Shown: piece after piece, positions 1 to 59,993 of the stretch
Layout of the letters: each line of letters opens with the position of its first letter
Numbering within the stretch: the first letter of the stretch is position 1
NCBI GenBank assembly: GCA_020137815.1
Contig: CM035360.1
Span: 6,820,001-6,884,000, forward strand
Source of the DNA: Hormiphora californensis
Taxonomy: Eukaryota > Animalia > Ctenophora
Direction of reading: 5' to 3'
Length of the DNA: 64,000 bases
Program-made: the position numbers and the translations under genes
The notes under the pieces: generated by a model
What the model saw: only the letters and a program-made list of their open reading frames with translations
Told to the model about the DNA's origin: nothing
Databases searched by the model: none

Positions 1-1300
1 GTGGTAGCGGAGTTAATTCTGGGTTTATCCAGTCTGGTGGGGGCCTTCTGCAGCAACTACACCACCCTACTGGGGGTCCGGTTCTTCCAAGGAATGGGCA
101 TGTTTAACTGTGTTATTGGAAGTTATGTCCTCATCGCAGACTTCATACCCGCCAGGTAATTGCTTAGATATATGAAAGCGGGTGAAACAATAAACGATAT
201 CACTCTAGACAAAATAAGAGTTACCAATCCAAACTAATGCATTCAGGGCCTAATTTCCAGATTTCGCGAGTACCAATTCATTCACTAATCAGGGCCTAAT
301 TTCCAGGTTTCGCGAGTACCAGACAGCCCTCTGTATGGCCTGTATGTCCCTTGGTTTTGGACCCCTCGTTGTCACAGCAACCATAGTCTCCGATTGGAAC
401 AGATCCTACTACGCCATGGTCCTATACACTATCCTGTTCGGTCCTGCCCCTTCTCTGGGTACCAGAGTCTCCTCGGAACCAGCTGGCTGGCTGGCAGGAA
501 GGAGAAAGCAGAGCTAGCAATAAGGAAGTTTGCTAGGTTGAATGGGGTCAAGTGGCAGGGGTTCAAGGATATGGAGAGTGAGGATCAGGAGAGGATGATG
601 GATGGTATAGTTGGACAGTTGAGAACCCTTGTTACCCACCGGGTCCTATTAGTTGGAGACACTCGGACAGATGTTAATCTGGGTGGTGGTCTATGTCACC
701 TTCTTTGGCCTCAACTACGCCTGGGATAAAGCTCCTACCCAGCACCTCTACAGGGTTCCTACTGGCCATGGGTGTCCAACTACTGGCCTACATCTGTCTC
801 ATTCCTACCATGAAGAGAGTGGGAAGAAGGAAATATATGGCAGGTTCATTTCTCCTAGCTGCTCTATTCCTGGGGTGCGGTACTACCGATATAGCTCTGG
901 GAGATGCCGGGTGGTCTGCTGCTAGTGTGGCTAGGATCCTGGCTTTATTCGCAGGTTGCGGGTGCATACAGTGGTATAATGTTGTGGAATGTTGAGCTGC
1001 CCCCTTGCACCCATACCTGGAGCGGTTCCTGGGTATGTGTTCAGCCATCTCCAAATCGTTTGGTCTGGCATGCCCCGCTTTGTTTAGCAGTCTAGCCCTG
1101 AGTTAACAGGTGGGTTCCAGGTTACATTTGGGGTTCTGGCGGGGATGTGTGCTGGAGCAGCTGCTGTCTCTCTAGCTCTATCCGAGACTATGGGCCGTGC
1201 TATTGCCGAGACACCGGAGGAGGTGAAGGCTCGGAGATTGGAGAGGAGAAAGAGAGGAGGAGTTAGAGGGAGTCACCAATGTGTAGCAGACTTGTTCTAA
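1..1300 (+). CDS. MFS transporter, SLC22/organic cation transporter-like (5' partial; several frameshifts)
   Basis: Exon 1-155 reads VVAELILGLSSLVGAFCSNYTTLLGVRFFQGMG...SYVLIADFIPAR; GT-AG intron 156-306. Later pieces in shifting frames give the SLC22/sugar-porter motifs LWVPESPR, KRVGRRK and LSETMGRAIAETPEE, with a stop at 1298-1300. At least one shift falls in a homopolymer (CCCC at ~447-450), so either read errors or a pseudogene. Confidence 0.8.
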
Positions 1301-1617
1301 CCCTCCTTTACATTTGTAAAAGGGTTTCCCGTGTGGGTGAAACAGGGTCAAGCAAGGCAATTATAGCAGACAGAGCTTGGGAGACAAGACTATCAAAGAG
1401 AGAATGTGAGGACGTGAGATAAAGGACTCACATATATTTCAGACTAACAATGTTTTTTTGTTTTATAAAGTTCATTGATGATTCTAACTACGACTTTCAG
1501 TTACTTTTCCGGGGGCCAGTCTGAGAAAACTAAAAGTAATCCCAGTTCAGTGAACATTGAACATTCCACCGATTTTTGTGAACACACAAACTCATATCAG
1601 TAAAATGTTTGAGGTAC

Positions 1618-56617: not shown

Positions 56618-59600
56618 CTATTCGTATTGATGCTCGGTAGTCCCAAAGAAGTAGTCCTCAAGATTGTATCGGAGCGTTTCAAATGTTGGTCTTTGTTCTG
56701 GGTCATCCTTGTGACAGTTCATAATCAACCTGGGAGAGAGAGGATTAGTTAGTGGGACAGTTCATAATCAACCTGGGAGAGAGGATTAGTTAGTGGGATA
56801 GTTCATAATCAACCTGGGAGAGAGAGGATTAGTTTTTTATTGGAAGAAGTTTCAAACGATCACGGAAACAATTCGCATTTTTAAATATCAAATAATATCA
56901 CACACCGTGCGTCTGAGGGCTTCACGCAGGAATCCCGCACTTAAGAAGCCCCTCTAGATGTAGCTAAGTTTTACAGGTAAATAAGTTAAAAATATATCGT
57001 TGTTGCTGCTAGACTAGATTAACAGTTAGAGAGGGGGAGCCACGGGGAGAGGGGCGTCCCGCAGCAGTGGCAGCGGTGAGCAATTGGAACATTCATGAAG
57101 TGAGAAGGTGAAGGTGATGGAATAATTATAGAATATTGTCGATATCAATATCACTGAAAAGGTAGCTCTTGAGCCCAGTCAGGAAGATGGGCAACGTGTC
57201 ACTCTGTCGAAGTTCGTACGGTAGCAAATTCCAGGACCTGGTGACCCTATGGAAGAAGCTATCGCGCAAAGTAGAGGAGCACTTGTGACTGTTACTCGTG
57301 TCCACAAGGGTGGTCCGATCTAAGCCAGCAATAATATCACGATTTTGACGCGTAGGTCGAAGATCGGCAACATTAACTGGCCTTATAGAATCAGGAATGT
57401 CAATCTGTACCATATTATAGACAATCTGGTAAAACAGCCGCAGGTCATTATACAAGAAGAGTTCCTCGAAAGGAAGAATGTTCAGACCCTTGAGATAAAA
57501 CACATATTGAACATTGCTATATGGGACAGTTCATAATCAACCTGTGAGAGAGAGGATTAGTTAGTGGGACAGTTCATAATCAACCTGGGAGAGAGAGGAT
57601 TAGTTAGTGGGACAGTTCATAATCAACCTGGGAGAGAGAGAGGGAGAGAGAGAGGATTAGTTAGTGGGACTATAATTATTAATTAATATAAAAGTGGGTG
57701 AGTTTTAGGGGTGGAATATGATCTGAATGGTGTATCTTAGTTGATGTTATGTTCCCAGTTATAAGCTTTCTTCAAATGTGTAACAAACTATTTGAAAAAG
57801 GGCCATGGTTTGTAGTAAGGTTCTAACCCTCCTTTACAGGGTCGAGCAAGGGAACTCACTTGTAGTAAGGATCCGGACAGGAAGGTGGTTGATCGATCTT
57901 TTCCCTATTTTCCAACATCTGCATGACATCCCTATTGTTCTTTCCAGCGTAGGGGATCTTTCCAAAGGTTATTATCTCGTAAAGGAGCACTCCAAAACTC
58001 CACACATCCGACTTTACACTGTACCTGATGGGTGATGGTGGTGATGGTTCGTACTTTATTTCAGGAACCGACAGAAACAAGTAAACAACCAATCAGAACT
58101 CGTTATTTAGTTCAAATGACCGGTTATCAGCCAATCAGGGACCAGTATTTCCTGATTCGGTCGGTTCCTGCTTTATTTCTTTTACATAGCGAACACAGGC
58201 AACTCAAGGGGGGGGTGGTGGTGGATGTAGAGGAAGACTTGGATATGAATCACGTATTGTTATAGAACTAAGTTTTGGCCAATACCCCGCAACTAAACCA
58301 ATTATTTGGGTCAACATTTGCATTCCTCCCAATACTTACTGTCCATAAAGAGCAGCCTCGGGAGCGGTCCATCGGACGGGGAAGCGTGTATTTGAGTTGG
58401 CGTTATACTCCTCATCCAATTTACTGAGCCCGAAATCAGCGATCTTGCACTGTCTGTCACCACTCACCAGGACATTCCTTGCTGCCAGATCTCGGTGAAT
58501 GAATCCCTGGGAGAGAGGGTTAGAGTAATTGTAGCAGGGGAAGGGAGGGGGAGAGAGATGATTGAGCGGGAGAAATGATACTTAATTGAAAATAAACTCG
58601 CAATTCTCGGTAAAGATGAGATATTATCCCTGCCCCACCACATACACCGTCATTTAAAAGTGTGTGTAAGCGATGCGTCCATTGTTTGTTGTTTTACCCA
58701 CACCCTAGTAGCAAGTTTCTCTCTCTCTCTCTCTCTCTCTCTCTCTCTATATATATATATATATATCTCTCTCTCTCTCTCCTCTCTCTCTCTCTCTCTC
58801 TCTCTCTCTCTCTCTCTCTCCTCTTCCTTCCTCTCTATCTCTATATCACTCCCACATACAAGTTATATAGCAATCGGTTGTTGAGCAGTTTTCACACTGT
58901 TAAGTTATTGATACTAACACACTCTCATGATCGATCATCAATCTACTCAGCAACCCACAGTTTGTATCGAGAGAGAAAGAGAGACTATTAGAGAGACTAT
59001 TAGAGTGTATTGTCAACTGAAAGTATGACGGGTGGGAAATAAAATGATTCTGCAGAATGAGTCATTCAACCGCACCCCGGGGCGTGGTTGCATGACTTTT
59101 GGCGAAGATGACGTTTTATGCATTTCTACTAAAAAGTATATGATTGAAATAATCTAATAAATCTAAACTCACGTTGATTTCAAGGTAGCTCATTCCATTA
59201 GCGCACTGAGCAGCCATATCAATTAAATCTTTGGGTTTCAGGGTCTCTCTGGAGACAGGCTTCCTCAGGTAGTCCAATAACGAACCATTTGACATCAACT
59301 CCGTAACTGCAGGGAGGGAGGGATGGGTTAGAAAAAGGGGGTTAGAAAAAGGTGGTTAGGCCGGCATGAAGTGGTTAGGGTAAGGAGAGGGAAGGCCGAA
59401 GGAGATATAGAGGAGGGAAGGAGTTGAGGGAGGGAGTTAGAGAAACCGGGAACTTCGACATTTTAGGTTTGGACTTAGGCCAATTAGGGCAAGTCTGAAT
59501 TCAGGGTTCGTCAATTTAGGGGAAGTCTGAACTTAGTACACTCTTGTCATGTTCTAACCCTAAACCCGTAAGAGATCAGGTTCGAGTAAACAACGTACTA

Positions 59601-59993
59601 TTGTTGGGTAAGGTAACTCAACAAACATGTAGTAACGTACCGATCATCATTGGTTCAGAGGAGACGTGGATGGCAAGGAGACTGAGAATGTTCTTGTGCT
59701 TCAATTGCTTCATAAGATCTGCCTCTCCCAAGAATGCGTCCTTGTCCATCGTACCTAGGAAGGAGGAGGGGAGTTAGAGTGGGAGAAAGGAAGTACTGTT
59801 TCTGTTGTCATGACTGTTTGTAAGTTCCTAGGAAGGAGGGGGAGTTATGTTGGAATTTTGGATGACAAGATTGAACTCATCTGACATTCACAATCTGTGT
59901 CCTTTATGTATGTACCTGGATTTAGCGTCTTGATGGCCACCTCAGTGTTTCCCATGAACAGGCCCTTGTACACAATACCAAACGCCCCGTTAC
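56618..59993 (-). CDS. Src/Frk-family non-receptor tyrosine kinase (kinase domain and tail; N-terminal exons lie in the garbled region)
   Basis: Exons 59993-59916, 59754-59641, 59306-59173, 58506-58340, 58024-57860, 56729-56618. Motifs: [54 protein letters not shown]; tail [14 protein letters not shown] with a C-terminal regulatory Tyr. An SH2-like remnant YFLVR sits near 62060. Confidence 0.93.
56714..57670. repeat. Six copies of a ~43-bp unit spanning the kinase last 3' splice site, split 3+3 by a LINE
   Basis: TTCATAATCAACCTG at 56718, 56761, 56802, 57530, 57573 and 57616; the minus strand reads actaactaatcctctctctcccAG|gttgattatgaactgtc. Confidence 0.92.
56833..57520 (-). mobile_element. 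5'-truncated LINE (CR1/L2-like) ORF2 C-terminus plus 3' UTR
   Basis: [10 protein letters not shown]...DLRLFYQIV...[16 protein letters not shown]...FLTGLKSYL, the typical post-RT C-terminus; ends AATAAAAAA. Confidence 0.85.
58062..58170. mobile_element. hAT-type MITE with perfect 8-bp TSD in a kinase intron
   Basis: CTTTATTT|CAGGAACCGA...TCGGTTCCTG|CTTTATTT. Confidence 0.9.

Follow-up and report, generated by a model that had tools for sequence, protein, structure and literature searches.

Tandem copies of splice acceptors in a 64-kb window of the ctenophore Hormiphora californensis as probable mirage minisatellites

Introduction

Which acceptor is used when an intron ends in a row of near-identical copies of its own splice site? 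The question is raised by a stretch of 64,000 nucleotides from the ctenophore Hormiphora californensis (assembly GCA_020137815.1, contig CM035360.1, positions 6,820,001 to 6,884,000), hereafter the window, in whose numbering all positions are given. It was picked for its acceptor duplications, and its gene models were built by hand. We consider it probable that the arrays are ctenophore representatives of the minisatellites known as mirages, in which the reading frame runs on only from the copy next to the intact exon, which is also the likely choice of the spliceosome, with the remaining copies being tolerated clutter and not a device.

Mirages are known from amphioxus, where tandem copies of intron-exon borders were found in Adh3, the globin genes BflGb6 and BflGb9, troponin C and PGBD5 (Canestro et al., 2002, as cited by PMC3087553 and PMC3902484; PMC3087553; PMC3902484). 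As far as the accessible parts of these reports go, they occur at both borders, keep intact splice signals, have units of 10-160 bp and copy numbers that vary between haplotypes, and leave the mRNA normal by reverse transcription polymerase chain reaction (RT-PCR; PMC3087553; PMC3902484), while their origin is called unclear (PMC3087553).

Results and discussion

Copies of acceptors with exon stubs

The repeats at an acceptor of an SLC22-like transporter gene, at an internal acceptor of a 'PLOD-like' gene, and in the last introns of an LKAAEAR-family gene and a Src-family kinase gene are tandem copies of the gene's own acceptor together with an exon stub of 5-17 nt (Table 1). Exon positions held in common with the true site, by which we mean the copy that joins the full exon, number 15, 5, 8 and 14-17, respectively, and the copies align at these four sites with scores of 55-105, above all of the 861 unrelated acceptor pairs that served as null (highest score 32). 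With one donor described below, border-spanning tandem units are present at four acceptor sites and one donor site. CAG is retained in 23 of 23 LKAAEAR copies and 6 of 6 kinase copies, which equal the true site in the scores of an acceptor matrix trained on 37 other acceptors of the window (leave-one-out scores -11.5 to 18.2). Only the outermost copy joins the full exon, judged by homologues at the kinase and by frame elsewhere. The copies, their stubs, the stop codons reached from the other copies (decoys) and one presence/absence polymorphism are direct observations. Variation among units and well-polished flanks make an assembly artefact unlikely for the arrays other than the 34-nt one.

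An initial annotation had listed six such repeats in four genes, and all six are present where it placed them. Its description of the unit as the gene's own acceptor plus exon bases holds for the pair at the SLC22-like gene, the six copies at the kinase and the 23 copies at the LKAAEAR-family gene; at the internal PLOD-like acceptor, given as two to three copies, two stand and the third is a short remnant with a chance-level score. A second kinase site contains the repeat, with the acceptor copy marginal, and the PLOD-like array of about 190 units exists as such, with its role as acceptor unproven. The statement that only the most 3' copy enters a conserved coding exon is borne out at the kinase; conservation was not seen for the last exons of the LKAAEAR-family and PLOD-like genes, which lack a Pfam match. 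Unit lengths are, as described, not multiples of three for the main units, although 21-nt units (17 cases) and 33-nt units (16 cases) occur among 175 units of the 34-nt array.

Table 1. Repeats at splice junctions, associated exons and modelled genes in the window.
Feature	Positions	Strand	Details
SLC22-like duplicated acceptor	236..321	+	decoy AG ends at 260, true AG at 306
Candidate last PLOD-like exon	4971..5047	-	24 codons, if the last AAG of the 34-nt array is the acceptor
34-nt satellite, about 189 units	5036..11317	-	in the intron after donor 11346; branch-point-like motif, pyrimidine tract, AAG
Triplicated splice donor (PLOD-like)	12878..12943	-	unit of 21-22 nt, 14 exon bases
PLOD-like internal acceptor	14163..14252	-	one full 40-nt decoy (AG 14208), 12-nt remnant (14248), true AG 14168
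Inferred last LKAAEAR exon	47513..47584	-	23 codons plus stop, in phase with donor 53051
44-nt minisatellite, 23 acceptor copies	47577..48576	-	8 exon bases each plus 10-nt filler
Last kinase exon	56618..56729	-	conserved; best PDB match Fyn, E 2e-6
Six copies of the last kinase acceptor	56713..57670	-	unit of 41-43 nt, 14-17 exon bases
Internal kinase acceptor, decayed or partial copy (marginal)	59751..59850	-	decoy AG 59828, true AG 59755
SLC22-like transporter gene		+
Enoyl-CoA hydratase-family (ECHDC3-like), ribulose-phosphate epimerase, 'PLOD-like' and AP-2 factor genes		-
Long Cys-rich gene, LKAAEAR-family gene with same-strand nested gene, Src-family kinase gene		-

Pfam backs the nine intron-bearing genes modelled other than the PLOD-like gene, which has no such support, and the long Cys-rich and nested genes, which carry no family name. 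They contribute 43 introns, the shortest of 82 nt and five in the range of 82-91 nt; one of the donors (22821, AP-2 gene) is probably about 10 nt off, and the AP-2 exon catalogue stops at 24 kb. Leaving aside the disputed acceptor of the 34-nt array, 36 of 42 acceptors are CAG, six are TAG and none is AAG.

The kinase gene

The six kinase copies are split into three and three by an insert of about 690 nt with an A-rich end, which had no Pfam match and which we take to be LINE-like. Spliced at the last copy, the kinase model is 71% identical over 255 amino acids to a protein of Bolinopsis microptera (P0011, whose cluster also includes a Mnemiopsis leidyi protein) and 69% identical to a second protein (P0009), whereas identity is no higher than 53% for the four proteins that follow in bit score among 120 aligned, so that the homology by itself marks the host as a ctenophore. 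The junction is free of gaps in the alignment to two orthologues, P0011 among them. The decoys score 14.8-18.6 and the true site 16.0, and all five decoys lead to a stop after 8-9 codons, shortening the modelled part from 255 to 227 amino acids. The segment lost in this way is conserved with Src/Fyn and the ctenophore orthologues, and the remaining model has no stop or frameshift. Since only the last acceptor gives the conserved C-terminus, use of the last copy is likely if the gene works.

In all six kinase copies, GT directly follows the AG, as it would if stepwise (recursive) splicing walked along the array with each used AG regenerating a donor. The sequence GTTG at these positions is, however, unmatched among the first four bases of the 43 annotated donors, the steps of 41-43 nt are shorter than the shortest annotated intron, and at the other five sites the decoys checked all lack a GT directly after the AG. 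We therefore regard recursive splicing, one of the options named by the initial annotation, as very improbable and reject it as a general account. The AG/GT arrangement is also shared with the proto-splice sites described for intron gain, as far as the available text of that report covers them (PMC3087553); the decoys at the other five sites differ in lacking the GT, and no new intron lies within an exon here.

At the second, internal kinase site, the alignment score of 36 is just above the maximum of the null, a single exon base is held in common, and use of the decoy leads to a stop within 9 codons; the repeat is probably a decayed copy and a marginal case. Upstream of another kinase acceptor (59307), a branch-point-like motif forms a 14-nt repeat of 2.5 copies that stops short of the AG (59325-59359, minus strand). 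The 5' exons of the kinase gene are unreadable in a poorly polished patch (60200-63400), one of two badly polished stretches of long-read consensus in the window; the other is at 5036-5700.

The LKAAEAR-family gene

The 44-nt array is situated at the 3' end of a 5.5-kb intron (53051-47585) that also contains the nested gene. Upstream exons match PF15478 (E 3e-5 and 4e-5); no Pfam match was obtained for the last exon, and a homologue search with exon 1 gave nothing relevant. Decoy scores (14.4-17.9) bracket that of the true site (15.0). Use of the decoys leads to a stop within 50 codons in 18 of 22 cases, and the other four continue in the frame of the repeat.

The 10-nt filler of the unit and its neighbouring bases have an exact 16-nt match at 35587-35602 and resemble a terminal repeat of the Tc1/mariner type, so that the array may have started at a transposon footprint. 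Two further arrays were noticed in the same intron: a 457-nt repeat of 3.4 copies with 99% identity between copies (50422-51998), and a 51-nt repeat of 3.9 copies (52430-52628, minus strand) with a strong donor-like site in each unit and an acceptor-like CAG ahead of it, which could be an amplified 13-nt cryptic exon end. The nested gene (48887-50312, minus strand) has three exons and no Pfam family, and adds two strong acceptors and donors to the 22 decoys of this intron. Parallel nested genes have been reported for Hormiphora, as far as the available text of the genome report shows (PMC8527503).

Internal acceptor and donor of the PLOD-like gene

The label of this gene is that of the initial annotation and stands for a presumed resemblance to PLOD/lysyl hydroxylase genes; single-exon homologue, Pfam and PDB searches, the last with five exons, gave no relevant match. 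A bacterial-type cadherin/Ig-repeat protein (P0001), which was the sole match of the homologue searches for the PLOD-like and LKAAEAR-family genes, was dropped as a chance match.

At the internal acceptor, the decoy has five exon bases in common with the true site, is equally strong in the matrix (9.0 versus 9.1) and leads to a stop within 9 codons. The 12-nt remnant at 14248 scores 30, a value reached by 6 of the 861 unrelated pairs. The same gene contains a triplicated donor that had escaped the initial annotation, and of which only the first copy (12929) keeps the frame. Donors are thus affected too, and the duplication is not specific to acceptors. At 12392-12515 (minus strand), a duplication with a spacing of 89 nt looks like two copies of a complete 21-nt micro-exon, each with an acceptor and a donor; the flanking introns would be 68 and 53 nt, below any annotated intron, so that its use is doubtful, and it was left out of the count of junction-spanning copies given below.

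Polymorphism at the SLC22-like gene

Sequencing runs X1, X5, X7 and X8 were compared with the window over positions 1-5100. X5 is from a second study and X1 may be the source sample; X7 matched with just two short pieces, and X8 with three contigs of less than 90% identity, all on the ECHDC3-like gene, that resemble spliced RNA of a diverged relative. In X5, 39 nt (236-274) are missing, so the acceptor copy of the SLC22-like gene is polymorphic; this is the one site at which a difference in copy number between samples was seen. Long intronic stretches of the window also differ in X1 and X5, in line with the high intronic indel heterozygosity reported for Hormiphora in the available part of the genome report (PMC8527503).

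The two copies match at 15 exon positions apart from a single mismatch at +1, the decoy has a lower matrix score than the true site (2.0 versus 4.9), and its use leads to a stop within 9 codons. Positions 678-992 match Pfam Sugar_tr with an E value of 0.0016, a match that falls short of the curated cut-off. As assembled, the exon is open for 69 codons, and for 204 once bases missing in the DNA runs are skipped. The closed frame most likely reflects polishing errors.

The polymorphism bears on the alternative that the arrays represent null or mildly deleterious alleles segregating in a highly polymorphic species, with decoys partly used and these haplotypes kept by the assembly. Besides the absence of the copy from X5, the frame breaks at 442 and 475 of the SLC22-like exon, which are listed as absent in X5 only, and decoy scores as high as those of true sites fit this explanation. 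The breaks at 651 and 953, on the other hand, occur in neither X1 nor X5 and have the appearance of assembly errors, and the kinase model is intact over its 255 amino acids. The insert and point changes in the kinase array and the higher-order structure of the 34-nt array moreover indicate persistence. Taken as a general explanation, we consider harmful alleles improbable.

The 34-nt array

The last intron of the PLOD-like gene contains a satellite of about 6.3 kb, in which an exact-repeat search found higher-order blocks with repeats of up to 549 nt at spacings of 637, 910 and 1547. AG ends 174 of the 175 units parsed, which is in part a consequence of how the units were cut; of the 181 AGs in 5700-11310, 168 read AAG. 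We lean towards the view that the array ends in a used acceptor. That it is an ordinary satellite in the interior of an intron, with CAG 5007 as true acceptor and the gene ending one codon later, is a less probable though serious alternative for this array alone. For the satellite alternative speak the absence of AAG from the 42 other acceptors, the lack of an AG in the assembled final copy, and the spacing: the first AG of the array follows donor 11346 after 45 nt, and with the array collapsed the intron would measure 86 nt to CAG 5007, which lies 41 nt downstream of the array end, within the range of the five shortest annotated introns. The final copy lies in the mis-polished patch, where long homopolymers reach 33 per kb compared with 0.2-2.3 per kb in the well-polished stretches measured. 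Against the satellite alternative, X1 contigs hold normal units at this noisy end (loose ends at 5075, loop from 5074 to 5042). Furthermore, the unit is acceptor-like, with a median matrix score of 3.7 versus -4.5 for CAG 5007, and the sequences of X1 and X5 diverge from the window starting at 4974, which is the stop position predicted if AAG is the acceptor.

The candidate exon at 4971-5047 gave no Pfam or PDB match and no homologue that would confirm it; the longer peptide obtained with AAG presumably resembles the end of a 2-oxoglutarate dioxygenase fold. An assembly artefact was rejected for the 34-nt unit because it is seen in X1. Next to the array, a high-copy element at 4299-4974 is skipped by X1 and X5 contigs and has a depth about 1000-fold over its flanks in both runs; with its hairpin and CTAG end near 4886, we assume it to be Helitron-like.

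Excess at junctions and in last introns

A systematic scan for tandem duplications yielded 13 that are not microsatellites, with unit lengths of 21-107 nt, after removal of GA/CT-rich and poly-base rows and of units below 20 nt and with the two halves of the kinase array merged. Compared with random placement outside exon interiors, acceptor-spanning duplications are in excess within the window (5 of 13 versus 0.64 expected, P = 2e-4; with the 34-nt array left out as an acceptor, 4 of 13 and P = 3e-3), as are junction-spanning ones (6 of 13 versus 1.27, P = 6e-4). In this window, the genome thus generates junction-spanning duplications above random placement, as had been proposed, and junction arrays in 5-6 of 43 introns represent a high local density. 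Last introns, which are 9 of the 43, hold four of the five acceptor-spanning duplications (P = 0.005, post hoc), with P = 0.024 for three of four without the 34-nt array and P = 0.012 if the second kinase site is added. As the window was chosen for the feature, all these P values overstate the case.

Such an excess would be expected if a mutational process coupled to splicing or 3'-end formation duplicated DNA with a preference for junctions and most of all for the acceptors of last introns, for instance when breaks occur or templates switch at R-loops or stalled forks in places engaged by the spliceosome and the 3'-end machinery. In line with this idea, the units at the kinase, the LKAAEAR-family gene and the 34-nt array begin near a branch-point-like motif, selection alone should deplete such copies, and splicing of last introns is coupled to 3'-end processing according to the accessible part of a published account (PMC11802343). 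The numbers are nevertheless small and come from a single selected window with hand-made models and a post hoc test, the status of the SLC22-like intron as last is inferred from Pfam spacing, and a copy held intact by selection may keep an array recognizable for longer, which would inflate the count without any targeting. There is also no clear signal in tract composition: between the 6 and the 37 other acceptors, neither C content (P = 0.09) nor pyrimidine content (P = 0.28) differed significantly, and a C-rich or pyrimidine-rich tract was dismissed as trigger. On balance, we judge a coupled process unlikely.

Choice of the outermost copy

For the generation of the arrays, the choice among copies and the action of selection, we infer the following course under the preferred reading of the arrays as mirages. 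A replication slip or the repair of a break would duplicate 20-50 nt across a junction in this indel-prone genome, and unequal exchange, suggested by the higher-order blocks of the 34-nt array, would let the pair grow into an array. Spare copies would match the true site in the strength of their splice signals but lack the remainder of the exon, and with it enhancers, a partner donor or, in the case of last exons, the connection to the poly(A) site. By the matrix, decoys equal the true site on the intron side at the kinase, LKAAEAR-family and PLOD-like genes, which leaves the exon side as the source of any choice. Recognition from that side would pick the outermost copy, i.e. the last acceptor or the first donor, and the triplicated donor, whose first copy keeps the frame, mirrors the acceptors as expected for such a choice. 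Selection would then remove failures, so that the survivors look as if the machinery skipped decoys.

The initial annotation saw in this skipping a conflict with simple first-AG scanning. Normal mRNA is already known from amphioxus mirages, and use of the distal copy from two further systems, so that skipping decoys conflicts with no known splicing and special machinery is not needed. In human CBS 844ins68, the distal of two acceptor copies is used and the mRNA is normal, according to the available part of the report (PMC2630376). With its short exon stub, this polymorphic two-copy duplication is similar to the ctenophore sites; it differs as a single event that is linked to a point change and has not formed an array. 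Duplicated beta-globin acceptors in which the proximal site was followed by 14, 55 or 205 exon bases, a geometry like that of the ctenophore decoys, were spliced to the distal site only, although these are artificial two-site substrates that were spliced in vitro and very inefficiently, as the accessible part of the report states (PMC5389562).

Several points weigh against tolerated mirages as the explanation. The inefficient splicing of the globin substrates indicates, within the part of the report available, that decoys may cost yield; the SLC22-like allele may be dead; the 34-nt array may have no acceptor role at all; and plain tolerance leaves both the acceptor excess (5 of 13) and the last-intron bias (4 of 5) unexplained.

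Relation to amphioxus mirages

To the extent that the amphioxus reports are accessible (PMC3087553; PMC3902484), the ctenophore arrays share with mirages the minisatellite-like copies of borders on donor and acceptor sides, the intact signals, a unit size of 10-160 bp, the occurrence at several loci of one genome and, at one site, a copy number that varies between samples. They differ in their host and in copy numbers of up to 23 and possibly about 190, compared with 2-7 in the accessible parts of the amphioxus reports, where the last-intron bias seen here is not mentioned. Normal mRNA was demonstrated by RT-PCR for amphioxus, whereas normal splicing of the ctenophore genes is a prediction from their DNA. 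The class of repeat is therefore already published, and the ctenophore host, the density and the possible case of about 190 copies are additions. A literature search at the level of titles and the beginnings of abstracts, with most subscription journals outside its reach, found no ctenophore case of a mirage among the papers listed. Our results add ctenophores to the hosts of a little-known class of repeats otherwise described from lancelets and a few human genes, and they caution annotators to expect such arrays in poorly polished parts of long-read assemblies.

In a more far-reaching version, which we think rather unlikely, mirages in ctenophores and bilaterians would be the footprint of mutation coupled to splicing or 3'-end formation, nucleating at segments from branch point to exon, mostly in last introns, and the ctenophore spliceosome would pass about 190 intact acceptors over 6.3 kb. 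If that were true, the arrays would form a natural dose series of 2, 6, 23 and about 190 decoys for the choice of the last acceptor. Should the excess at junctions and in last introns hold genome-wide, it would suggest that DNA duplication is linked, as a mutational process, to splicing or 3'-end processing, and the choice of acceptor at last exons could be tested directly on the graded arrays.

Additional features of the window

Between the first and last bases of intron 1731-1837 of the ECHDC3-like gene, an X1 contig skips nearly all of the sequence, which may reflect another intron allele or intron loss. A 48-nt duplication upstream of the epimerase gene (4142-4189) is missing in X5. In a part of the AP-2 gene outside the annotation, a 41-nt partial duplication at 25310-25370 (minus strand) resembles a branch point, pyrimidine tract and CAG. 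An open frame of 2962 codons at 36795-45680 (minus strand) is rich in Cys and Lys and includes a 333-nt coding repeat at 42316-43592. Finally, a near-perfect inverted repeat of about 550 nt at 55200-56300, with its centre near 55755, could be a foldback element or an assembly chimera.

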